A stretch of DNA of 64,000 nt from an uncultured beta proteobacterium (GTDB lineage Bacteria; Pseudomonadota; Gammaproteobacteria; Burkholderiales; Burkholderiaceae_C): assembly GCA_963841045.1 (NCBI GenBank), contig CAWJBD010000003.1:256668-320667 (forward strand), read 5' to 3'. Position 1 is the stretch's first letter, and the number at the start of each line of letters is the position of its first letter. Positions 10,586 to 52,010 of the stretch are shown in pieces. The notes below the pieces were generated by a model, which saw only the letters and a list, made by a program, of their open reading frames with translations, searched no databases and was not told where the DNA came from. Both the position numbers and the translations under genes were made by a program.

Positions 10586-12724
10586 TCAAGCTACGCTTAA
10601 CTTTAGCAACTCTGCCCCTTCAGCCACTTGGTCGCCTGGTAAGTACAGTAGCTCCTCTACCACGCCATCTGACGGCGAGCAAATGGTGTGTTCCATTTTC
10701 ATCGCGTCCATGACCGCCAAGGCTTGGCCTTTGCTGACCTTGTCACCCTTTTGAATAGAGAAAGAAACCACTTTGCCCGGCATGGGTGCAGTCAAACGAC
10801 CGCCCTCTTCATGCACTTCGCCAGCATGTGCCAGCTGGTCGTTTACTATCATTTGTATAGCACCTTTGGCAGTAAATATGCTGGCTACATCCATATTTTG
10901 ATGTATTTTTGCTTGAATACGTTGCCCCGCAAATTGCACATCAATCCCAGTTGCGGTTGGTAAATAATCCAATGCACCACTGATGTCGCCAACTGTTAAA
11001 TGCAATGCACCTCCGTGTAAATATCGCAATTGAGCAGATACGGGTTCACCATAAATTTCAAATTCGAAATTTCGAACACGTTCACCATGCGATTGCCAGC
11101 CATCAACTTTGCCCCAAGGATCAGCCCAATTCGACGCGTTGAGTTTTTCCGTTTTGGCAGCGCCATTCACTTCAGACTGCAAGGTGTTGGCAACTGCCGC
11201 TGCCACCGCCAAAACTTTATCGATGGGCTTCTGGTTGAACAAGGCTTTTTCTTCTCTCGGAATTAAACCAGTATCCAAATTAGCCGTTGCAAACGATTCA
11301 CTGTTCACCACATGGCGCAAAAACTGCACATTGGACTGCAAACCGACAATGTGCGTTTGTGACAAAGCCTTGTCCATGCGCGCCAAGGCTTGTTCGCGCG
11401 TGGCACCATGCACAATCAACTTGGCAATCATGGGGTCGTAGTAAGGCGAAATGGCATCGCCTGCGCGAACACCTGAGTCCACCCGTACAGACACTGCCGA
11501 AATCGAATCGCTGGCGTTTTGAAATGCGACATGCTCTGGCAATGCATATACATTGATATCACCAATGGCAGGCATGAATTGCTTGTCTGGGTTTTCGGCA
11601 CAAATACGCGCTTCAATCGCATGTCCGTTGATTTGCAAATCTTGTTGTTGCAAGGGCAGTTTTTCACCATTGGCTACGCGTAATTGCCACTCCACCAAAT
11701 CCAAACCCGTAATCGCTTCAGTCACTGGATGCTCAACCTGCAAGCGCGTGTTCATCTCCATGAAATAAAAGGCCCACACTTGCCATTGGTGTGCTGCGCT
11801 GCCCGCGGGGTCTAATTTCCCTTGAGGCGGCTCGGCGGGAAATTCTGCATCAACCGTTTCCACAATGAATTCAACCGTGCCAGCGCCCACATAATTCACG
11901 GCACGCGCAGCGGCAATGGCTGTGGCACCCATTTGTTCACGCATGGCTGGCGACAAGCCAGGTGCTGGCGCTTCTTCCAAGACTTTTTGATGGCGGCGTT
12001 GCACCGAACAATCGCGTTCAAACAAATGCACATAGTTGCCGTGCGTGTCGCCAAACACTTGTATCTCAATATGACGCGGACGTTGCACGTATTTTTCGAT
12101 CAACACATTGTCGTCACCAAAACTGTTGATGGCTTCGCGTTTGCATGAAGACAATGCTGCTGCAAAGTCGGCTGCCTTTTCCACAATGCGCATGCCTTTG
12201 CCACCACCGCCCGCGCTGGCTTTGATGAGCACGGGGTAGCCAATCGCATCGGCTTGCATTTGTAAATACGCCGCATCTTGGTTGGCACCGTGGTAACCAG
12301 GCACCAATGGCACGCCGGCTTTTTCCATCAACTGTTTGGACTCTGCTTTCAAACCCATGGCCTGTATGGCGCTGGCTGGTGGGCCAATGAATACCAAACC
12401 GGCTTGTGAGCAACTGTCTGCAAAGGCATCGTTTTCACTCAAAAAGCCGTAGCCAGGGTGAATGGCCTGTGCGCCCGTTTGCTTGGCCGCATCAATGATG
12501 GTTTGCCAACGCAGGTAACTGTCTTTGGGCGCATTGCCTGCATTTGGGTTGCTGCCATCGCCCACATCGCCAATGGCAATGGCTTCGTCGCAAGCCATCA
12601 CATGCTTGGAATGCGCATCGACAGGTGAATAAATAGCGACAGTTTTGATTCCTAAGCGTGCGCAAGTGGCTGCGACTCGGCAAGCAATTTCACCGCGATT
12701 GGCTATCAGTATTTTTTTGAACAT
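10586..12724 (-). CDS. liuD: 3-methylcrotonyl-CoA carboxylase alpha (biotin carboxylase + BCCP) subunit
   Basis: MFKKILIANRGEIACRV, EMNTRLQVEHPVTE, and the C-terminal biotinylation motif AMKME. Carries an in-frame Family-2 repeat insertion just before EMNTRLQVEH. Confidence 0.95.
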   Translation of the reverse strand: MFKKILIANRGEIACRVAATCARLGIKTVAIYSPVDAHSKHVMACDEAIAIGDVGDGSNPNAGNAPKDSYLRWQTIIDAAKQTGAQAIHPGYGFLSENDAFADSCSQAGLVFIGPPASAIQAMGLKAESKQLMEKAGVPLVPGYHGANQDAAYLQMQADAIGYPVLIKASAGGGGKGMRIVEKAADFAAALSSCKREAINSFGDDNVLIEKYVQRPRHIEIQVFGDTHGNYVHLFERDCSVQRRHQKVLEEAPAPGLSPAMREQMGATAIAAARAVNYVGAGTVEFIVETVDAEFPAEPPQGKLDPAGSAAHQWQVWAFYFMEMNTRLQVEHPVTEAITGLDLVEWQLRVANGEKLPLQQQDLQINGHAIEARICAENPDKQFMPAIGDINVYALPEHVAFQNASDSISAVSVRVDSGVRAGDAISPYYDPMIAKLIVHGATREQALARMDKALSQTHIVGLQSNVQFLRHVVNSESFATANLDTGLIPREEKALFNQKPIDKVLAVAAAVANTLQSEVNGAAKTEKLNASNWADPWGKVDGWQSHGERVRNFEFEIYGEPVSAQLRYLHGGALHLTVGDISGALDYLPTATGIDVQFAGQRIQAKIHQNMDVASIFTAKGAIQMIVNDQLAHAGEVHEEGGRLTAPMPGKVVSFSIQKGDKVSKGQALAVMDAMKMEHTICSPSDGVVEELLYLPGDQVAEGAELLKLSVA
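11773..11844 (-). repeat. Family-2 palindromic repeat, in-frame copy inside liuD
   Basis: The coding strand GAATTTCCCGCCGAGCCGCCTCAAGGGAAATTAGACCCCGCGGGCAGCGCAGCACACCAATGGCAAGTGTGGG aligns over about 75 nt with 50266-50342. It contains AATTTCCC-N15-GGGAAATT and CCCGCGGG palindromes. Confidence 0.8.
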
Positions 12725-13487: not shown

Positions 13488-14324
13488 TTTTAACTCCGTT
13501 TATTTCGACGACGATTTGGGCAACGCTGTCCAGCCCACTATTCATCCAACTGGGTTTACGTTTTTCTAAAAAAGCAGAAACGCCTTCTTTACCTTGCTCG
13601 CTGGCACGGCAGTTGGCAATGCCTTGCACGGTTTGGTCAATCAATGTTGGTTGATGTCACTGTGTGCTACCCACTGCAACAAATCTTTGCATGCCTTCAC
13701 CGCTTGCGGGCTGTTGCTGCACAATGTGCTGGCAATGGCGTTCACTTTTTCATCCAAGGCTTCAACTGTAGACACCACTTCGTGCACAAAACCGATACGC
13801 AAAGCTTCAGCTGCAGAAAACCGCTCAGCTGTTAAAAAATAACGGTGTGCGGCTCGCGGTCCCATGGCACGAATGACGTAGGGGCTGATGGTGGCTGGAT
13901 ACAAACCCAGCTTCACTTCACTCAGACAATAATTGGCAGTGTCTATTGACACCACCATATCGCACACCGATACCAAGCCCATGCCACCCGCATACACATC
14001 GCCTTGAACGCGCGCGACGGTTGGTTTGGGGCATTCATACATCACTTGCAACATGCGCGCCAATTGGCTGGCATCGGCCACATTTTCGTCGTGCGAATAA
14101 TCGGCCATTTTGCGCATCCAATTCAAATCCGCACCGGCACAAAATGCAGGCCCTTGTGCCGCCAGCACAATGCAACGCACATCGTCATCTTGCCCCAGCG
14201 TTTCAAACGCTTGTGTCAATTGCGCAATCACTTCCTCATTAAACGCATTGCGAACATCCGGTCGCACCAGTGTGACTTGCGCGACGTGAAGTGAGGGTTT
14301 GCTAATTAAAACAGCTTGACTCAT
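13426..14324 (-). pseudogene. liuC: methylglutaconyl-CoA hydratase (enoyl-CoA hydratase family) with a -1 frameshift near the 3' end
   Basis: Frame A reads MSQAVLISKPSLHVAQVTLVRPDVRNAF...QGPAFCAGADL...NSPQAVKACKDLLQWVAHSDINQH-stop (13641). Frame B continues LIDQTVQGIANCRASEQGKEGVSAFLEKRKPSW, the canonical crotonase C-terminus. The ATG at 14324 lies 10 nt after the liuB stop. Confidence 0.75.
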
Positions 14325-14334
14325 TTGCGCATCC

Positions 14335-15957
14335 TTACATCCGGAATATGCCAAATTTGGCATCGGGTATCGGTGCATTCAACGCCGCGGACAAGCCCAA
14401 AGCCAAAACCTTGCGCGTGTCGACTGGGTTGATGATGCCGTCGTCCCACAATCGCGCTGTGGCGTAGTATGGATGGCCTTGGGTTTCGTATTGGGCTTTG
14501 ATGGGCGCTTTGAATGCGGCTTCTTCTTCGGCACTCCAAGCGCCGCCTTTGGCTTCAATGCCGTCACGTTTGACAGTAGCCAAAACGGATGCCGCTTGCT
14601 CACCGCCCATCACGCTGATGCGCGCGTTGGGCCACATCCAGACAAAGCGTGGGTCATACGCGCGACCACACATGCCGTAGTTACCAGCACCAAAACTACC
14701 GCCAATGATGATGGTGAATTTCGGCACGTTGGCAGTAGCCACGGCTGTCACCATTTTGGCGCCGTGACGTGCAATGCCCTCGTTTTCGTATTTACGCCCC
14801 ACCATAAAGCCGGTGATGTTTTGTAAAAACACCAATGGAATTTTGCGCTGGCAACAAATCTCGATGAAATGTGCCCCTTTTTGCGCTGATTCGCTGAACA
14901 AAATACCGTTGTTGGCAATGATGCCCACTTGCATGCCTTCGATGCGGGCGAAACCGCAAATAAGCGTAGCGCCAAAGCGTGCTTTGAATTCGTCAAAATC
15001 GCTGCCATCGACCACGCGGGCAATGATTTCGCGCACATCAAACGGTTTGCGGGTGTCCACCGGAATCACGCCATACAATTCTTCTGCTGCATATTTAGGA
15101 GCAATACTGGCAGATACTGCGCTGGCTACAGCCTTATTTTTATTCAAATTTTTGACAGCTTGGCGCGCTATGGCCAAAGCATGCAAATCGTTTTGTGCCA
15201 AATGATCGGCCACGCCGGACAAACGTGTGTGCACATCACCACCGCCCAAATCTTCGCTGCTCACCACTTCACCAGTGGCCGCTTTCACCAAGGGTGGACC
15301 GCCTAAAAAGATGGTGCCTTGGTTTTTGACAATCACTGTTTCGTCACTCATGGCAGGCACATAGGCTCCACCTGCGGTACAACTGCCCATCACCACTGCA
15401 ATTTGTGCGATGCCTTTGGCGCTCATTTGCGCTTGGTTGAAAAAGATACGACCAAAGTGATCACGGTCAGGAAACACCTCGTCTTGATTCGGCAAATTGG
15501 CACCGCCAGAGTCCACCAAATAAATACATGGCAACTGGTTCTGCTGGGCAATTTCTTGCGCCCGTAAATGTTTCTTCACCGTCAGCGGGTAATACGTGCC
15601 GCCTTTGACGGTGGCGTCGTTGCACACAATCATGCATTCAATCCCATTGACACGGCCAATTCCAGCTATCAGACCTGCCGCTGGCGCACTGTCGCTGCCG
15701 TCTTTGTCTGGGTACATGCCCATGGCTGCCAATGGCGCAACTTCCAAAAATGGCGAGCCTGGATCCAGCAGTTGGGTCACACGGTCGCGCGGTAACAATT
15801 TGCCACGCGCCAAATGTTTGCTGCGCGCAGCTTCGCCGCCACCCAATTGAACTTGCTTCAGTTTTTGTTTCAAATCATCGGTCAAAGCGCGCATGGCAGC
15901 CGCGTTGGCAACAAAGTCGGCTGAACGGGCTATGAGTTTGGTTTCAATGACGGGCAT
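14335..15957 (-). CDS. liuB: 3-methylcrotonyl-CoA carboxylase beta (carboxyltransferase) subunit
   Basis: 540 aa from [15 protein letters not shown], with carboxyltransferase-family sequence throughout ([55 protein letters not shown]). Confidence 0.95.
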
Positions 15958-16085
15958 GGCTGTTTTCTCAAATTCGTAATGGGTTTGAATCACATCATCA
16001 TAGTCGCAGCATCCAAAATATTCTGCCAATCAAGGCTTTTGGCACTGACGGTTACAACGAGCACTCGTTGACGCTAGCACTAACG

Positions 16086-39667: not shown

Positions 39668-40237
39668 ATGATTAGCACACTCACAGGCATACTCAGTGAT
39701 AAAAACCCACCGCAAATTGTGATTGATTGTCATGGCGTAGGCTACGAAGTCGATGTTCCAATGAGCACTTTTTATAACTTGCCAAGCATTGGAGAAAAAG
39801 TGAGTTTATTGACGCATTTTGTTGTGCGCGAAGATGCTCAAATCTTATTTGGATTTCAAACAGCGCAAGAACGTACTGTATTTAAACAGCTCATTAAAAT
39901 TTCAGGTGTGGGCGCAAGAACTGCTTTGTCAATACTTTCCGGCATGAGTGTGAATGAGTTAGCTCAAGCTATTACACTGCAGGATGCTGGTAGGTTGGTG
40001 AAAGTCCCAGGTATTGGAAAGAAGACGGCAGAACGATTGCTGCTGGAGTTGAAAGGCAAGCTCGGAGCAGATATGGGTCATACTAGCCACGTGGGTGGCG
40101 ATGTGCATGTTGACATATTGCAGGCTTTGGTGGCCTTGGGTTACAGCGACAAAGATGCTACATTGGCCGCCAAAGTGTTGCCAAAAGATATCAGTGTCAG
40201 CGAAGGCATCAAACTGGCTTTGCGAGCATTGGCATAA
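39668..40237 (+). CDS. ruvA: Holliday junction DNA helicase RuvA
   Basis: 189 aa. [16 protein letters not shown] and [12 protein letters not shown]. Confidence 0.95.
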
Positions 40238-40274
40238 AGAAAATAATGATAGTCAATCAACTTACATAGTCAAG

Positions 40275-41333
40275 ATGAGCATTCAAACCGACGATTTCGC
40301 TCCAGCGCCCACCAAGCGAGTCATATCCGCTGAACCCTCTTCGCCTAACGAAGAAGCCATAGAGCGCGCATTGCGACCCAAACTGTTTGACGAGTACGTT
40401 GGCCAAAGCAAAGTTCGTGAGCAATTAGAAATTTTCATTGGTGCGGCAAAAATGCGCAATGAAGCCATGGACCATGTTTTGCTTTTTGGTCCACCAGGAT
40501 TAGGAAAAACCACTCTTTCGCACATCATTGCGCACGAGCTTGGTGTTAATTTACGGCAAACGAGTGGGCCCGTATTGGAAAAACCTAAGGATTTAGCGGC
40601 ACTGTTAACCAACTTAGAAAAAAATGATGTTTTGTTTATCGACGAAATTCACAGATTGAACCCTGTGGTCGAGGAGATTTTGTATCCAGCTTTAGAAGAT
40701 TACCAAATTGACATCATGATAGGTGAAGGTCCCGCAGCCCGATCAATTAAGCTTGATTTACAACCATTCACCTTAGTTGGAGCGACCACACGTGCGGGTA
40801 TGCTAACGAATCCACTTCGCGACAGATTTGGTATCGTCTCCCGTTTGGAGTTCTACACTGCTGACGAATTAGCACGTATTGTTCAGCGCAGCGCAGCTCT
40901 GCTTAACGTGCCTGCAGATAAAGATGGTGGATTTGAAATCGCTCGTCGATCACGTGGTACACCTCGAATCGCCAACCGATTGCTACGTCGTGTGCGTGAT
41001 TTCGCAGATGTAAAAGGAGAAGGTCAAATCACATTGGATATCGCCAATAAAGCGCTGGCAATGCTTGATGTTGACCCGCAAGGTTTAGACATCATGGACC
41101 GAAAAATGTTAGAAGCGGTCATCCATCGTTTTGATGGTGGCCCCGTTGGCTTAGATAATATTGCAGCCAGCATTGGCGAAGAACGCGATACGATTGAGGA
41201 TGTGATCGAACCGTATTTAATTCAACAAGGCTATTTGCAACGCACCCCAAGAGGACGAATCGCTACCCTAGCAGCTTACAAACATTTGGGTGTTTTACCA
41301 CCTAAAAATACTGCAGAGCTATTTATAGAGTGA
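40275..41333 (+). CDS. ruvB: Holliday junction DNA helicase RuvB
   Basis: 352 aa from [10 protein letters not shown], with Walker A (GPPGLGKTT) and Walker B (LFIDEIHRL). The longer ORF from 40095 overlaps ruvA and is not RuvB-like. Confidence 0.95.
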
Positions 41334-44771: not shown

Positions 44772-44878
44772 AAGAATCTCCAGTGATAAATAATTTGAAA
44801 GTTAGTTTGAATCAAACTCATTGATTGTCACGCCAAATCAGCGTCAGCTGCATAGGTAGTAACACTAGGCATGCAACT

Positions 44879-45083
44879 TCAGCACAAGACTGCACAAACA
44901 CATACCTTTAGACGTTTGTCTGCTGGCACCTTCGCCAGCAAGTCCTCAGAAAATTTGATTTGTTGTACACCAACACGGCGCTTGTTTTTCACCTGTCTCA
45001 CGTTCTATCACCATTGCGCAGTGATTGGGTTGACCGCAAATGGCGCAAAGATTTTCATCGATGCTGTGTAAGTGAGATGCCAT
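44879..45083 (-). pseudogene. cysteine-rich CWC-family small protein gene with a +1 frameshift (not in the ORF track)
   Basis: Minus strand reads MASHLHSIDENLCAICGQPNHCAMVIERETGEKQAPCWCTTNQIF-stop. The next frame reads FSEDLLAKVPADKRLKVCVCAVLC-stop. The junction is in an A/T run at about 44949-44956. The span of 205 nt is 3n+1. Confidence 0.65.
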
Positions 45084-45200: not shown

Positions 45201-45593
45201 TTAGTAGCTTGAACGGCCACCGCCGCCGTAACCGCCGCCGCCATCGCGACCGCCGCCACCGTAACCGCCGCCGCCTGAACGACCGCCGCCACCGCCGCCG
45301 TAACCACCACCGCCACCGAAGCCACCGCTACGTGGAGGACGTGGCTCCATCGGACGTGCTTCATTGACGACGCAGCTGCGACCGCCTAAATCTTTACCAT
45401 TCATACCAGCAATGGCTGCTTGTGCTTCGGCATCGCTGCCCATTTCCACAAAACCAAAACCTTTTGAACGACCTGTGTCGCGTTCCATCATCACTTTAGC
45501 GCTGGTAACAGCACCAAATTGACTGAAAGATTGCTCTAAATCGCCATCGCGAACCGAGTACGGCAAATTGCCAACGTACAGTTTGTTGCCCAT
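45201..45593 (-). CDS. RNA-binding protein (RRM domain, Gly/Arg/Tyr-rich tail)
   Basis: 130 aa with RNP-2 (LYVGNL), RNP-1 (KGFGFVEM) and a C-terminal GGGGYGGGG repeat. Confidence 0.9.
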   Translation of the reverse strand: MGNKLYVGNLPYSVRDGDLEQSFSQFGAVTSAKVMMERDTGRSKGFGFVEMGSDAEAQAAIAGMNGKDLGGRSCVVNEARPMEPRPPRSGGFGGGGGYGGGGGGRSGGGGYGGGGRDGGGGYGGGGRSSY

Positions 45594-45823: not shown

Positions 45824-46045
45824 TCAAACGGCTTCGTTGTCTAAGTTGTCTTGCTGGGTGTAGTTTCGCCATTGCTTCAAACCCTCGCGCATGGTGAGCA
45901 ACTGCTTTTCAAAATTGGGGCAAGCTTTGCAGGCCCACAAATGAATCCGTAAACCAACCCGGTCACTCACGGCTAAAGCGCGGTCTTCACGCGCGACCAG
46001 CAAGGCTGCGGCTTGTTTGCAGGACATCATCATTTTCATAGCCAT
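45824..46045 (-). CDS. zf-HC2-type anti-sigma factor (small)
   Basis: 73 aa. MSCKQAAALLVAREDR...HLWACKACPNFEKQ (H-x3-C-x2-C). Lies directly downstream of the ECF sigma gene. Confidence 0.75.
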   Translation of the reverse strand: MAMKMMMSCKQAAALLVAREDRALAVSDRVGLRIHLWACKACPNFEKQLLTMREGLKQWRNYTQQDNLDNEAV

Positions 46046-46103
46046 ATTGAATACTGTTTAGCGAGTTAAGTGAGTTGACTGAGTTAAGTGAGATTCAAAA
46101 AAT

Positions 46104-46700
46104 CTATTTTGCTGCCGGATTTGGCTGATTGCCAAACCAATTGAGTTCCAAACATTCGCGCAGTCGAAGACGGGCGCGGTGCAATTGAACGTAAAGATTG
46201 GTCGAAGTCAGGTTGAGTTCCTTACAAATTTCGTCGACGGACATCTCTAACCATTCGCGCATCAGAAAAAGCCGACCTTGCGCGGCGGGCAATTTATCGG
46301 TGCAAGCTTCCAAAATTTGAAAAAATTGTTGCGATTGCAAATTTTCAGACGGATTGAAAGTCGCATTTTGCCCGCCAGACCATGTGGACGGTGGCTCAAC
46401 AAAATGCCCGTCTTTTTGAAACATCAAGGCATCCAGCTCCTCATTGCCATCTTGATCGGATTCAAAATGAATACTGGCCTCACGCGTTTGCACTCGCAAA
46501 ATATCCACCACTTTGTGTTTCAAAATACCAACCAACCAGGTCTTTAACTGTGATTTGTTTTCAAACGATTGTGGCTTGGCCAATGCCGCTAAAAGGGTGT
46601 CAGACACAGCGTCTTCAGCCCATGCATCATTGCGAAGTTGCAAGCGTGCAAATCGCAAAAGATAGTCGCGATGCTGATTCAGCTGGAGTTCAATTGGCAT
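46104..46700 (-). CDS. ECF-type RNA polymerase sigma-70 factor
   Basis: 198 aa with region 2 (DAWAEDAVSDTLLAAL...LKTWLVGILKHKVVDILR) and region 4 (LFLMREWLEMSVDEICKELNLTSTNLYVQLHRARLRLREC). Confidence 0.9.
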   Translation of the reverse strand: MPIELQLNQHRDYLLRFARLQLRNDAWAEDAVSDTLLAALAKPQSFENKSQLKTWLVGILKHKVVDILRVQTREASIHFESDQDGNEELDALMFQKDGHFVEPPSTWSGGQNATFNPSENLQSQQFFQILEACTDKLPAAQGRLFLMREWLEMSVDEICKELNLTSTNLYVQLHRARLRLRECLELNWFGNQPNPAAK

Positions 46701-46775
46701 GCTAGGGCTTAGATTTGTATTGAAATTAAAAAGTAGAAAAAGTCTGTAAGAATATTTCAGAACGAGAGACTATTC

Positions 46776-46817
46776 AGCAATCGTAGCAAAATCAATTGTC
46801 ATTTTGCACCGATTGCT
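46776..46817. promoter_or_regulatory. nested 42-bp near-palindrome in the sigma / bufA divergent promoter region
   Basis: AGCAATCG-TA-GCAAAAT-CAATTGTC-ATTTTGC-AC-CGATTGCT. A GAAC (46760-46763) lies 18 nt before CGTA, giving a weak ECF-promoter-like pattern. Confidence 0.4.
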
Positions 46818-46877
46818 ACTGTATTGTGCAGTAGTTTATGTGATAGTTTTATTTTCATTTATTTTTAGGAGATACCC

Positions 46878-47175
46878 ATGAACCAACGTGCACTTATCGC
46901 ATCTGCCGCTACCGCTTTGCTCTCTACCATGTTGCTGTCCACTTCTGCCATGGCCGCCAGCCATGCTGCTGCACCTAAGGCTGAAAAAGAAAAATGTTTT
47001 GGCGTTGCAAAAGCAGGTCAAAACGATTGCGCCAATTTGGCTGGTACACATTCATGTGCTAGGTCAAGCCAAGGTTGACATGGACAAAGGCGAATGGAAA
47101 TACGTTGCCAAAGGCACTTGCGCCACCATGAAAGGCATGAGCATGGAAGAAGCCAAAAAAGGCATGAAAAGCTAA
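46878..47175 (+). pseudogene. bufA: DUF2282-family signal-peptide RiPP precursor (bufferin BufA-like), interrupted by a +1 frameshift
   Basis: Frame 1 reads [61 protein letters not shown], then RSSQG-stop. Frame 2 continues [37 protein letters not shown]. There is an extra base at about 47061. The span of 298 nt is 3n+1. AGGAG RBS at 46867-46871. Confidence 0.8.
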
Positions 47176-47218
47176 GCTAAAAACATTGGCACTTTAAATA
47201 TTCAACAAGTCCGCCCAC

Positions 47219-48103
47219 ATGACATCGCATAGCAATATCGGTATCGGTTGGCGGCACCCTCATTACCAAGAGTTGGTAGATCGGCTGCCAACTCTTGATT
47301 TTTTAGAAGTCCATTCAGAAAACTTTTTTGGCAAAGGTGGCGCGGCATTGGCCGTGCTGATGAAAGGCCGTTCGCACTACCCCATTAGCTTGCATGGTGT
47401 TGGTTTGGCCTTAGGCTCAGCTTCTGGCATTGATGAATGGCATTTGAACAAACTGACCCATTTGGTGGCACAAGTGGACCCCATTCGTGTCAGCGACCAC
47501 GCTTGCTTTGCGCGTGGCAGTGTTGAATGCCAAGGTCAAATGGTGAATGTGCATGGCGCAGATTTGTTGCCTGTGCCCTTCAACCAAGAAGCCTTGGCTG
47601 TGATGTGTGCGAACGTCAGCCAAGTGCAAGACCGTTTGAAACGCCGCATCGCGGTAGAAAATCTTTCCGCCTACATCAGCTTTGCAGACAGCGATATGCC
47701 TGAGACCGAATTTTTGAACCAACTCGCACAGCGCACAGGGTGCGAGTTGTTGGTTGATGTGAACAACATTTACGTCAACGCGCTGAACGACCAAATACAA
47801 CAGCGTTGCACCAACCCATTGCAACAATGTAAAGATTGGTTGAATCAAATTAGGCCAGATGCGGTTTCAGAAATTCATTTGGCTGGTCACATCGACTGCG
47901 GCGACATTGTGGTGGACGACCACGGCAGCCGCATCAAAGCACCGGTTTGGGATTTGTACCAACACGCGATTCAACTGTTTGGTGCGGTGCCCACTTTGAT
48001 TGAATGGGACACCGATATTCCTGCATTGGATGTGCTACTGGATGAAGCACAGCACGCCAGTCAAATTTGCAAAGCCTGCCTAACTACAGAGGTCACAGCA
48101 TGA
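47219..48103 (+). CDS. bufB: DUF692 / MNIO-family enzyme (MbnB/BufB-like)
   Basis: 294 aa. [13 protein letters not shown]...[12 protein letters not shown]...[12 protein letters not shown]...RVSDHACF...EWDTDIP. Confidence 0.85.
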
Positions 48104-48936
48104 GCAACTTGGCCGCGCAACAAAGCGCGCTATTACGCACCTTGTTCAGTTCACCTGTTCAACGGAGTCAAAATGCTACTAATTTCATAGCACTTCAGGC
48201 AATCAATACGCCGCCTAGAGGCCAAAAAGACCATATAAAATTCCAAGAAAGAGGCTTGCAGGTGTATCACGCCAATGCGCAAGTGGCAGCCATTCGCAAC
48301 TTGCAAGCGGCCTATCCAGTGACAGAACAATTGGTTGGTGGCGAAGCGTTTGCTTTGTTGTCGCGCGATTTGTGGCATCAATTTCCACCTAGCAAGGGCG
48401 ATGCCGCTCAATGGGGCGCAGATTTGGCGCAGCTCATCCACAGCATTGCAGAATTAAAGACAGAACCTTACCTGCCCGACGTTGCACGCATTGAATGGGC
48501 CTTGCATATGGCAGCAACAGCAACCGATGCAGAACTGGACGTTAACAGTTTGGCGCTGTTGACCACGCATGCCCCCGATGCCATTACCTTGCAACTGGCA
48601 ACTGGCACACACATTGTGAACAGCAGCTATCCAGCCGCCAGCATCACCACAGCGCATTTGTATGAGAACCCCAACTTTGAAGAATTACAAGCCAAACTCA
48701 GAAAGAGCAGCCCTGAATCTGCCCTCATTTGGCGACAAGGTTTTCGCCCATCTGTGGCCTTATGTACTGCTGCCGATGCCGCATTTATTCAAAATTTATT
48801 AGACGGTGCATCTTTGGCGGCAGCCTTGGATGACACCGAAACGGTTGACTCAACGCCAGCATTTGACTTCAACACGTGGCTCACACAGTCAGCGCAATCT
48901 GGTTTGCTGGTGGGTGCCAAACTGCTTTCAACTTAA
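48100..48936 (+). CDS. bufC: DUF2063-family partner protein (BufC-like), carrying an in-frame Family-1 repeat
   Basis: 278 aa from [26 protein letters not shown]...[13 protein letters not shown] matches the DUF2063 N-terminal pattern. Its ATG overlaps the bufB stop (ATGA). Confidence 0.8.
48171..48223 (-). repeat. Family-1 dispersed palindromic repeat, copy F (in-frame inside bufC)
   Basis: The reverse complement reads GGCCTCTAGGCGGCGTATTGATTGCCTGAAGTGCTATGAAATTAGTAGCATTT. In the gene it is translated as [18 protein letters not shown]. Confidence 0.8.
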
Positions 48937-48972
48937 ATCAATCTCTTAACCCAACAACACATAGGAAGAAAA

Positions 48973-49419
48973 ATGGAGAACACCCCTATCAAGCGAGGAT
49001 TGGCTTTATGGACCAGCGTGACTCAAACATTGGATTTGGCTCAACCTTTGGCTGCAATGCTGGCCCGCCTGTACGTGGCACAAGTCTTTTTCATGTCGGG
49101 CCTCACAAAAATTCGCGATTGGGAAATCACAGTGTCACTGTTTACCGATGAATACAAAGTACCCTACTTATCGCCAGAACTCGCCGCCATGCTGGGCACT
49201 GCGGGTGAATTGGTTTTGCCTGTGCTCTTGGTATTGGGATTGATGGGGCGCTTTGCGGCGCTGGGTTTGTTTGTGGTGAATGCGATTGCCGTTATCAGCC
49301 TGTCTGAAATCGCACCTGCCGCTTTGCAACAGCACATCACTTGGGGTGTGTTGCTCGCATTGTTGGCCATTTATGGTTGCGGAAAATGGGCGCTTGATCA
49401 TTGGTTAATCAAGCGATAA
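48973..49419 (+). CDS. DoxX-family membrane protein (in the BufD position of bufferin operons)
   Basis: 148 aa with four TM segments. LARLYVAQVFFMSGLTKI and AELVLPVLLVLGL. Confidence 0.8.
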   Translation: MENTPIKRGLALWTSVTQTLDLAQPLAAMLARLYVAQVFFMSGLTKIRDWEITVSLFTDEYKVPYLSPELAAMLGTAGELVLPVLLVLGLMGRFAALGLFVVNAIAVISLSEIAPAALQQHITWGVLLALLAIYGCGKWALDHWLIKR

Positions 49420-49481: not shown

Positions 49482-51174
49482 ATGGCGAATTCCGACAACT
49501 TTAATCCTCAACCACCAGCGCAAATGGCCAGCACGATTGTGCTGTGCACGCTCAACGCCAAGTACATCCATGCCTCTTTAGGATTGCGTTATTTGTTCGC
49601 CAACATGGGCGAATTGCAGTCGCAAACGCGCATTTGTGAATTCATGATCAACCGCAAAAGCCCAGAAGAATGGGCGAATGAGTTGATTGCCATGAACCCA
49701 CGCATCATTGGCTTTGGTGTTTACATTTGGAACACGGTGCAAACCTGTGAAGTGGTCAAACTGCTGAAACAACTGCGACCAGACATCACCATCGTTTTAG
49801 GTGGCCCAGAGGTCAGCCATGAAGTACTGGAACAAGAAATCGCGCAACTGAGCGACTACGTCATCACCGGCTGGGGCGACATCAGCTTCCCCAAACTGTG
49901 CCGCGCGGTGTTGCATGGTCCTCAACCCTTGATGAAAGTGATAGCGGGCGAGCAACCGCCGCTGGACGACATCCAACTGCCCTACGCCTACTACACCGAC
50001 GAAGATTTGGCGCACCGCTTGCTGTATGTGGAAGCCTCGCGCGGTTGCCCGTTCAAGTGCGAGTTTTGCATCAGCTCGCTGGACAAAACCGCATGGGCAT
50101 TTGATTTGGATTTATTTCTGGGTGAACTGCAAACTCTGTACAACCGTGGCGCGCGCAATTTCAAATTTGTGGACCGCACTTTCAATTTAAAAATCGACGC
50201 ATCGGTGCGCATCATGCAGTTCTTTTTAGACAAAATTGACGCCGAGAAGCATGGGAGAGGATTTGAATTCTCCGACGAGCCGCCTCTAGGAGAATTAGCC
50301 CCCTCGGGGGGCAGCGCAGTACGCGAAGCGACAAGCGTGGGGGAACTTTTCCTGCATTTTGAAGTGATTCCAGACCATTTGCCAGACCGACTCGAAAGAA
50401 ATGATTGCCAAATTCCCACCCGGCTCTTTGCAATTTGAAGTGGGCATTCAAACCTTTAATGTCGATGTGCAAAAGCGCATTTCGCGCAAGCAAGACAATG
50501 ACAAAACCGTTGCCAATTTGAAATGGTTGCTGAACGAATCCAACGCGCATTTGCACACCGATTTGATTTTTGGCCTGCCAGGCGAAAGCTTGCAAAGTTT
50601 CGCCGATGGTTTTGACAAACTGTATGCGCTTGAGCCGCATGAAATTCAACTCGGCATTTTGAAACGCCTGCGCGGCACGCCCATTGCCAAGCACACCGAA
50701 ACACACGGCATGGTGTACGACCCGCTGCCGCCCTACCAAGTGCGGCAAACCGCGGCAGTGACTGCGGCTGACATGACCCGCTTTGCCCACATGGCACGCT
50801 ATTGGGATTTGGTCGCCAACTCTGGCCGCTTCACCGCCACCATGCCTTTGCTGATGCTGGGTGATTCACCATTCGGCGCGTTCATGGCTTTCAGCGATTG
50901 GCTGTGGAATGACTCCATCCACATCAAAGGCAAAACCAGCGGCATCACGCCCGAGCATTTGGTCAATGCCCTGCATGCATATTTGATTGGGCCACGCGGT
51001 ATGGATGTGGATGTGGTGACGCAAGCCCTGCTCACCGACTACGTCGCCAGCGGTGCGCGGGCCAGGCCTGATGTGCTGCGTCATTTAATGCCAAAGTTCC
51101 CAGCACCCATCCCCAAAGCCAAGAAGCAACACAGCCAGCGCCAAGCGCAGCATTTGTCGCTGACTCCGTCTTAA
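49482..51174 (+). pseudogene. B12-binding-domain radical SAM protein (DUF4080-type) with a +1 frameshift and an in-frame Family-2 repeat
   Basis: Part 1 ends ...LFLHFEVIPDHLPDRLE then RNDCQ... and a stop. Part 2 begins (K)EMIAKFPPGSLQFEVGIQTFNVDVQKRISR. Contains the rSAM cluster motif EASRGCPFKCEFC. The junction is at about 50391-50400. The span of 1693 nt is 3n+1. Confidence 0.8.
50266..50342 (+). repeat. Family-2 palindromic repeat, in-frame copy inside the radical SAM gene
   Basis: AATTCTCC-GACGAGCCGCCTCTA-GGAGAATT, then a GCCCCCTCGGGGGGC hairpin, then AGCGCAGTACGCGAAGCGACAAGCGTGGG. Translated as EFSDEPPLGELAPSGGSAVREATSVG, compared with EFPAEPPQGKLDPAGSAAHQWQVW in liuD. Confidence 0.8.
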
Positions 51175-51194: not shown

Positions 51195-52010
51195 ATGACT
51201 TTTTCTACCCGCTTTTGGGCAAAATTAAGCACCGATGAATTTGCAACGCGCTTGTCAACGGGTGCTGCAGCCGACGTGGTGGCCGTCTTGCCAGTCGCTG
51301 CGACAGAGCAACATGGACCGCATTTGCCCCTGTCGGTCGATGTGGATTTGGTCGATGGCATCGTGGCAGCATGTTTGCCGCATTTGCCACAATCATTACC
51401 CGTCTTGTTTTTGCCAACGCAAACAGTTGGTTTGAGCAGCGAACACCTCAACTTTGCCGGCACATTGAGTTTGAGCCCAGAGACCATCATCCGTACCTGG
51501 GTAGAGATAGGCGCGGCTGTGGCACGCACAGGTGTGAAAAAACTGGTGCTCTTCAACAGCCACGGCGGCAATGTGGCGGTGATGGACATCGTTGCGCGTG
51601 AGCTGCGCGCACACCATGGCATGATGGTTTTCAGCAGCAGTTGGTACAACTTGCCTTTGGGTGCTGCGGCAGATGCATTCAGTGCCGAAGAACACCGCTT
51701 TGGCTCCCACGCCGGCGATATCGAAACCTCCATGATGCTGGCTTTGAACCCACAATCCGTGCGCATGGACAAAGCGCAAAATTTCCAATCCACCAGCCAA
51801 TCCCGCGCCCAACAATTCCCCATCCTAGGCAACGGCAAATCCGCCAAACTAGGCTGGCAAATGCAAGACATCAACCCCAACGGCGCAGCCGGCAATGCTG
51901 CCAATGCAACGGCTGAGAAAGGTCAAGCGTTAGTGGATGAAGCGGGCAAGCAACTGGCGGCGATGTTGCAAGAGGTGGTGCGGGTGCCGGTGGGGACATT
52001 GCAAAATTAA
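51195..52010 (+). CDS. creatininase-family (creatinine amidohydrolase / MftE-like) protein
   Basis: 271 aa. VLPVAATEQHGPHLPL, SHGGN and GSHAGDIETSMML. Confidence 0.85.
   Translation: MTFSTRFWAKLSTDEFATRLSTGAAADVVAVLPVAATEQHGPHLPLSVDVDLVDGIVAACLPHLPQSLPVLFLPTQTVGLSSEHLNFAGTLSLSPETIIRTWVEIGAAVARTGVKKLVLFNSHGGNVAVMDIVARELRAHHGMMVFSSSWYNLPLGAAADAFSAEEHRFGSHAGDIETSMMLALNPQSVRMDKAQNFQSTSQSRAQQFPILGNGKSAKLGWQMQDINPNGAAGNAANATAEKGQALVDEAGKQLAAMLQEVVRVPVGTLQN

Follow-up and report, generated by a model that had tools for sequence, protein, structure and literature searches.

Positions 45824-49419 of a 64-kb stretch of DNA from an uncultured beta proteobacterium, hereafter the window, carry a four-gene cluster and, divergent from it, a pair of regulatory genes. 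The minus strand encodes an extracytoplasmic function (ECF) sigma factor and a small anti-sigma factor. The plus strand encodes a DUF2282 precursor peptide (BufA), a DUF692 enzyme of the MNIO family (BufB), a DUF2063 protein (BufC) and a DoxX-family membrane protein (BufD). A preliminary description of this DNA had proposed a bufferin- or gig-like architecture; the protein families, four invariant cysteines in the precursor and the gene order all agree with that proposal. The host looks Comamonadaceae-like, and its closest genome is Ca. Aalborgiella aggregata, a metagenome-assembled genome whose locus (L001) is 94-97% identical over 13 kb. The features of the locus and its two downstream neighbors are:

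45824-46045, minus strand: anti-sigma factor of 73 amino acids, classed as a soluble zinc-binding anti-sigma (ZAS); NCBIfam antisigmaE, with Pfam zf-HC2 below its cut-off
46104-46700, minus strand: ECF sigma factor of 198 amino acids; Pfam Sigma70_r2 and Sigma70_r4_2
46199-46226, minus strand: promoter-like motif, copy 2, TGTAAGGA-N15-GACCA, within the sigma coding sequence
46745-46772, plus strand: promoter-like motif, copy 1, TGTAAGAA-N15-GACTA, 5' of bufA
46878-47175, plus strand: bufA, DUF2282/BufA1 precursor; PF10048, as the bridged 98-amino-acid protein
47060-47064, plus strand: site of a 1-nucleotide insertion in bufA, from alignments to loci L001, L081, L082 and L086
47219-48103, plus strand: bufB, MNIO (DUF692) bufferin maturase of 294 amino acids; PF05114 and NF050167
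48100-48936, plus strand: bufC, DUF2063 and RRE-like partner protein of 278 amino acids; PF09836, AlphaFold2 (AF2) model and Foldseek
48973-49419, plus strand: bufD, DoxX-family membrane protein of 148 amino acids; PF07681
49482-51174, plus strand: B12-radical SAM/DUF4080 gene, split; downstream of bufABCD on the same strand
51195-52010, plus strand: creatininase-family gene, downstream of the radical SAM gene

The DUF692, DUF2063 and DoxX assignments of the preliminary description were each reproduced. The profile hidden Markov model searches that it had proposed as a check returned 87.8 bits for DUF2282 (PF10048, gathering score 22.4), 318 bits for the MNIO family (PF05114, MbnB_TglH_ChrH), 44.9 bits for DUF2063 (PF09836, over the N-terminus of BufC) and 60.3 bits for DoxX (PF07681). 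The DUF2282 score refers to bridged BufA, which is the precursor sequence of the window with one base removed; the extra base is considered below.

Searches with bridged BufA returned 5667 homologues at E<=1e-5. PF10048 is present in all 120 of the matches listed, and one homologue carries the UniRef name 'BufA1 family periplasmic buf...'. The four-cysteine precursor described earlier is well conserved: Cys40, Cys51, Cys60 and Cys81, with codons at 46995, 47028, 47055 and 47119, are invariant in an alignment of 27 orthologues. Their spacing is 11/9/21, compared with 11/8/21 for Cys12/23/31/52 of Buf1 from Caulobacter vibrioides, the loop between the second and third cysteines (CysII and CysIII) being one residue longer in the window. 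In the Caulobacter peptide, CysII and CysIII become 5-thiooxazoles and CysI and CysIV form a disulfide (PMC11626156). Inspected by eye, the N-terminus of BufA shows a basic n-region (MNQR), a 19-residue hydrophobic stretch and an AMA-A cleavage motif, a signal-peptide-like pattern that is kept, on inspection, across the 27 sequences. The putative signal peptide would be encoded by 46878-46955, with cleavage predicted after AMA26. Two tandem bufA genes stand 5' of a single bufB in L007, L015, L054, L056, L060 and L067, in agreement with the tandem bufferin precursors already published (PMC12452194).

BufB passes the NCBIfam equivalog model for bufferin maturases (NF050167, MNIO_BufB, 'MNIO family bufferin maturase') at 318.6 against a cut-off of 310, and its scores with the NCBIfam models for MbnB, ApyH and ChrH fall far below their cut-offs. 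Direct sequence matches to MbnB (E ~6e-5) and TglH (3e-13, over part of the protein) are weak; in the PDB, BufB matches 3BWW at E=8e-34. Ten residues, H32, H59, H94, E147, D180, N183, H220, D233, H235 and E262, are invariant among 25 homologues, and these histidines, aspartates, glutamates and the asparagine are putative metal ligands, in keeping with the known MbnB and TglH structures. Within bufB, 48 nucleotides into the gene (47267-47297, plus strand), a perfect 13-bp stem (-20.8 kcal/mol) is followed by TTTTTT. The window and L001 share this element, which is missing from the eight other orthologues checked; it could be a lineage-specific attenuator that raises the ratio of bufA to bufBCD transcript, or it could be chance.

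The start codon of bufC overlaps the bufB stop codon as ATGA at 48100-48103, as previously noted and as seen in the raw sequence, and bufC is apparently translationally coupled to bufB through this overlap. PDB sequence searches with BufC, using either the single sequence or a 24-sequence profile, found nothing meaningful. The AF2 model of BufC (predicted local distance difference test score, pLDDT, 81; predicted template modelling score, pTM, 0.73) matches TglI (8HI7_A, E=1e-5) and NGO1945 (3DEE, E=1e-4) by Foldseek, and more weakly the RRE protein TbiB1.

The same gene order recurs across genomes. We retrieved 80 genome loci with BufB and ran the window proteins against them by tblastn. A bufA gene lies directly upstream of bufB in 74 of the 80 loci, bufC lies downstream of bufB in 66 of 66, and doxX follows bufC in 42 of 66. 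A homologous sigma and anti-sigma pair is found upstream in 40 of 64 loci (29 divergent, as in the window, and 11 co-directional).

The regulatory pair is an ECF sigma factor and a zf-HC2-type anti-sigma factor on the minus strand, as the preliminary description held. In addition to its Pfam sigma domains, the sigma protein scores 281.9 against 255 for NCBIfam PRK12520 and 223 against 162 for TIGR02943. The anti-sigma protein scores 65.9 bits with NCBIfam NF052368 (antisigmaE; cut-off 50) and 20.7 bits with Pfam zf-HC2, slightly under the cut-off. Residues C9, H35, C39 and C42 are invariant among 26 homologues with identities down to 35%, and their spacing, C-x25-H-x3-C-x2-C, equals that of C4/H30/C34/C37 in MseR (PMC2893595). 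Its 73 residues include no hydrophobic stretch and gave no match to NrsF. Judged by this spacing, the NCBIfam match and published descriptions, the protein is classed as a soluble MseR/HrsE-type ZAS. MseR is the soluble ZAS anti-sigma of Neisseria meningitidis, where sigma-E drives an operon with DoxX-like and hypothetical genes (PMC2893595). HrsE is its counterpart in Haemophilus influenzae, where RpoE2 governs doxX and the DUF692 and DUF2063 genes together with one for a periplasmic peptide (PMC7907618). The earlier suggestion of an RpoQ/RsqA-type pair does not hold, because the literature places RsqA and NrsF in the membrane (PMC13492112, PMC3511200) whereas the anti-sigma here is a soluble protein of 73 amino acids with MseR spacing. 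A protein search with it returned only close Burkholderiales relatives, and most homologues have no Pfam match, so the pairing of buf genes with a soluble anti-sigma may be under-reported. Cluster surveys based on Pfam largely miss this class of anti-sigma; sigma domains and NrsF were scored in the published landscape survey (PMC12452194).

The 58-nucleotide spacer between the sigma and anti-sigma genes (46046-46103) contains about 3.3 copies of a 9-nucleotide unit (GAGTTAACT-like) at 46063-46092 and differences among strains L081-L085 cluster there; several other genera have these genes abutting or overlapping. Directly beyond the anti-sigma gene, at 45201-45593 on the minus strand, lies a gene for a glycine-rich RRM-type RNA-binding protein (NCBIfam Rbp_regulator, 106.9 against 100), which keeps this place in about 30 Comamonadaceae-type loci. 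Its position may reflect a functional link or mere family-level synteny.

The linkage of the sigma pair to the buf cluster is accompanied by a conserved bipartite DNA motif 5' of bufA. Phylogenetic footprinting of 39 sigma-bufA intergenic regions, including that of the window, identified GTAAGA-N16-GAC(T/C)A (that is, TGTAAGAA-N15-GAC(T/C)A) in 32 of them, on the same strand as bufA; the sequence of the spacer is not conserved. In the window the motif (46745-46772) sits 105 nucleotides 5' of the bufA ATG. With one mismatch allowed, the 64 kb contain two matches against 0.08 expected, and both are within the locus. The second lies inside the sigma coding sequence, at residues CKELNLTST, approximately 150 nucleotides upstream of the anti-sigma start. 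Of 50 orthologues, 47 have TGT as the cysteine codon at this embedded copy; in loci with a GC content of at least 0.55, it is TGT in 34 of 38, compared with ~18% TGT at the other cysteine codons of the cluster genes. This bias argues for constraint at the DNA level beyond that on the protein. The embedded copy is probably a sigma-dependent internal promoter for the anti-sigma gene, which would provide negative feedback. A similar design is known in E. coli, where rpoE contains the embedded rseA P3 promoter. A generic scan for sigma-70 promoters and terminators gave results at or below chance, and Rfam searches of the region and of the bufA 5' untranslated region returned nothing credible.

Given the observed families, gene order, conserved residues, synteny and conserved DNA motifs, we assign a probability of roughly 0.8 to the reading that this locus is a standard Buf1-type bufferin (BufABCD, 'gig-like') cluster. 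Apart from an uninterrupted precursor frame, the window shows every Buf1-defining feature that could be tested. From characterised homologues we infer the following pathway. BufA would be made with a Sec signal peptide, and its Cys51 and Cys60 would be oxidised to 5-thiooxazoles in the cytoplasm by the iron enzyme BufB acting with BufC, the DUF2063/RRE partner. Modified BufA would be exported by Sec and cleaved after Ala26, a disulfide would form between Cys40 and Cys81, and the product of ~72 residues would chelate and buffer periplasmic copper. DoxX, which is dispensable for modification in Caulobacter, would be an accessory protein. The divergent ECF sigma factor would transcribe bufABCD from the candidate promoter upstream of bufA. 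Its soluble zinc-binding anti-sigma would hold it and release it upon thiol-reactive stress in the cytoplasm, whether from an oxidant or from Cu(I), and the motif copy in the sigma gene would make anti-sigma expression sigma-dependent, closing a negative feedback loop.

Several points weigh against this interpretation. The window as written encodes no full-length precursor. Peptide chemistry, control of expression and metal binding would be as proposed if what is known of homologues carries over to this locus, where they are read from the genes. For BufA, AF2 was given a shallow alignment (25 sequences, 68-95% identity), and the resulting model has a pLDDT of 46 and is unusable for the fold or for the geometry of a CysI-CysIV disulfide. 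BufD scores 59 bits with the NCBIfam HvfX model, under the cut-off of 80. The candidate promoter is assigned by conservation, and no copy of the motif was found upstream of the sigma gene itself. In Cupriavidus metallidurans, sigma control of the related gig operon was not demonstrable (PMC13492112). Finally, published responses of this class of anti-sigma diverge: MseR is unresponsive to classical oxidants (PMC2893595), and HrsE/RpoE2 responds to hypochlorous acid (HOCl) and H2O2 (PMC7907618).

In the window, bufA is split over two frames, 46878-47078 and 46888-47175, and the preliminary description listed this frameshift as an oddity of the locus. The extra base is present: positions 47060-47064 read GC-T-A-GG-T, outside any homopolymer, where relatives read GCT GGG (L001) or GCA GGA (L081, L082 and L086). 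As a biological feature it fares poorly. Intact 98-residue bufA genes occur in four independent relatives at 94-98% identity (L001, L081, L082 and L086), of which L081, L082 and L086 are independent short-read contigs, the last reached through a BufA homologue. The L081 protein is 100% identical to bridged BufA and that of L001 is 98% identical, and the window's sigma protein is present exactly in L081 and L082 (an exact-sequence look-up of the sigma protein matched L081-L085; the exact BufB sequence was not on record). Substitutions 3' of the shift are all synonymous in the bridged frame. Moreover, the window differs from L001 by five single-base insertions (44880, 44890, 44963, 47060-47064 and 50394), each of which directly follows the third position of a codon, for example GCT|G, GCA|G and CTC|G. 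Three of them (44880, 44890 and 44963) break a Cys_rich_CWC gene (44871-45083) and that at 50394 breaks the radical SAM gene. From this pattern, the consensus seems to have merged the two alleles at synonymous polymorphic sites; in GCTAGGT, the two alanine wobble alleles could stand side by side.

The bufA frameshift is thus very probably a consensus error, produced where the mixed strains of the assembly differ at synonymous positions, since the relatives are intact, the downstream changes are synonymous, the insertions share a codon position and the truncated 66-residue product is absent from a 153-billion-gene index. It is improbable that bufA is instead a recent pseudogene, with a 66-residue product that would lack CysIV and the C-terminal strand and with no functional bufferin. 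In favor of a real lesion, the base is there in the given sequence and is not a homopolymer slip, and a truncated product would be non-functional, as the CysI/CysIV double-mutant peptide of C. vibrioides was undetectable (PMC11626156). The coding capacity downstream of the shift is nevertheless undamaged, with bufB, bufC and doxX intact, and similar insertions in two other genes within 5.5 kb fit consensus error rather than independent pseudogenisation. A scan of JGI metagenomes for the intact and frameshifted alleles of the bufA site gave 0 matches. Programmed frameshifting was considered and rejected: there is no slippery sequence, and the natural alleles give the same protein without the extra base. 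Two other gene pairs in the window considered as possible splits, at 13641-16029 (ECH/carboxyltransferase) and 39668-41333 (RuvA/RuvB), are distinct genes. The frameshifted precursor and the split neighbors look like consensus errors and should not be taken as pseudogenes.

A different question is what the cluster is for. As in the systems of Neisseria sigma-E and Haemophilus RpoE2, its main role could be protection of the envelope against oxidative or hypochlorite stress, with copper buffering secondary. The regulator pair belongs to the MseR/HrsE class, and RpoE2, which is induced by HOCl and H2O2, controls doxX-MNIO-DUF2063 genes (PMC7907618). We nevertheless consider this assignment unlikely, given that Buf1-type peptides with the same cysteine pattern have very high affinity for Cu(I) and Cu(II) and confer copper protection (PMC11626156), and that no msrAB or other oxidative-stress gene in the window bears the promoter motif. 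The two roles are not mutually exclusive. We give far less credence to an extended pathway, in which the adjacent B12-radical SAM/DUF4080 and MftE-like creatininase proteins would tailor or cleave the bufferin. The preliminary description was correct that these genes are adjacent and on the same strand, with 62 nucleotides separating doxX from the radical SAM gene, and the best NCBIfam match of the creatininase is MftE, a peptidase for RiPPs (peptides made by the ribosome and modified after translation), albeit below the cut-off. Their membership in the cluster does not follow. A radical SAM or creatininase gene is near the cluster in 1 of 66 loci, namely that of the species-level relative L001, which marks both genes as incidental neighbors. 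Neither protein reaches the cut-off of any NCBIfam model, and extra conserved genes in bufferin clusters occur at extremely low proportions (PMC12452194).

Read as a Buf1-type cluster, the locus resembles several characterised systems. C. vibrioides buf1ABCD (CCNA_03363-03366; Leprevost et al. 2024, PMC11626156) has the same order of DUF2282, MNIO, DUF2063 and DoxX genes, near-identical cysteine spacing in the precursor and likewise an adjoining ECF sigma/anti-sigma pair; its precursor bears a Sec signal peptide, to which the putative signal of BufA would correspond. Departures from the best-studied bufferins are only regulatory, concerning the promoter and the class of anti-sigma. Caulobacter uses SigF together with NrsF, a membrane protein of six helices, and a GTAACC-N16-CGAA promoter, whereas the window has a 73-residue soluble ZAS and GTAAGA-N16-GAC(T/C)A. 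The two motifs share just GTAA and the N16 spacing, and the SigF/ECF16 promoter was not matched upstream of the operon in the window. The gigPABT operon of C. metallidurans CH34 is also a four-gene operon divergent from an ECF sigma/anti-sigma pair; copper and gold induce it, and its share in copper resistance is minor (PMC10304878, PMC13492112). Its rpoQ-rsqA pair differs, RpoQ being of group ECF16 and RsqA membrane-bound; published descriptions set the window pair apart as another anti-sigma class.

Regulatory parallels are Neisseria NMB2140-2145 (NGO1948-1943) and Haemophilus RpoE2/HrsE, which likewise have small (67-73 amino acids) cytoplasmic anti-sigma factors with C-x25-H-x3-C-x2-C (PMC2893595, PMC7907618, PMC13097082). 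Sigma-E and RpoE2 control clusters of DoxX, MNIO and DUF2063 genes, and the sigma factor of the window may do so too. NGO1945, the structural match of BufC noted above, is the archetypal DUF2063/RRE protein. The precursors differ: those of Neisseria and Haemophilus are EGKCG-repeat peptides (gonophorin, oxazolin), whereas that of the window is a DUF2282 protein of the Buf1 family, also called 'captophorins' (PMC13097082). Furthermore, Neisseria has a single operon with the sigma and anti-sigma genes at its end, and the Neisseria and Haemophilus regulons include msrAB. MbnBC of methanobactin and TglHI of pearlins also combine a TIM-barrel multi-iron enzyme with a helical partner, TglI being the best structural match of BufC; their chemistry and precursors differ from those of bufferins.

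Much of this is familiar ground. Bufferins were characterised in 2024, BufA1 and BufB are named in Pfam, NCBIfam and UniRef, and thousands of clusters have been catalogued. Once the unsupported additions are removed, nothing sets the present locus apart from the thousands of annotated BufA1 clusters. The regulatory arrangement is a modest but useful detail. We tentatively propose, at somewhat less than even odds, that in many Burkholderiales the regulator of Buf1 operons is a soluble zinc anti-sigma akin to MseR and HrsE in place of the membrane sensor NrsF, with a GTAAGA-N16-GAC(T/C)A promoter and a feedback copy inside the coding sequence of the sigma gene. Bufferin production in this lineage would then report cytoplasmic thiol, Cu(I) or oxidant stress and not periplasmic metal. 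By tying Buf1 clusters to an MseR-type cytoplasmic anti-sigma, the candidate promoter and its embedded copy would offer a handle on the signal that induces bufferins, a question shared by the gig, sigma-E and RpoE2 systems.

The preliminary description also reported a repeat inserted in bufC, which we could not reproduce. The only tandem feature that a repeat search and Tandem Repeats Finder detected in bufC is a 17-nucleotide run of GCAACTG x2.4 at 48591-48607, which aligns to bufC homologues without a gap (LQLATGT vs LQLAPGT). When the one genuine repeat element of the region was searched for by nhmmer --max, copies turned up at 11761-11870 and in the radical SAM gene, and none in bufC. The extra length of BufC is instead a lineage-variable, disordered N-terminal loop, shared with L001, with a middle part (residues 34-41) modelled at pLDDT <50.

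The repeat element itself, which may be the source of that report, is ~75-100 nucleotides long and lies in-frame within two unrelated genes, at 50220-50360 (plus strand) and 11761-11870 (minus strand). Its core is GAGCCGCCTCNAGGNNAATTAGNCCCC; in the radical SAM copy this core is followed by a GC hairpin, GCCCCCTCGGGGGGC. The first host is the B12-radical SAM/DUF4080 gene, whose L001 orthologue lacks the element; the second is a biotin-carboxylase gene (MCC/PCC alpha), where the element stands between GTVEFIVE and FYFMEMNTR. Both copies are translated in the same phase, as ..F(P/S)(A/D)EPP(Q/L)G(E/K)L(A/D)P.GGSA... The element looks like an in-frame insertion repeat in Burkholderiales, akin to the Rickettsia palindromic element. 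Outside the window the element occurs at L012:845-930 and in L087-L095; a metagenome scan found nine copies besides the two in the window, seven of them in the same phase and three of these seven within open frames of 234-377 amino acids.

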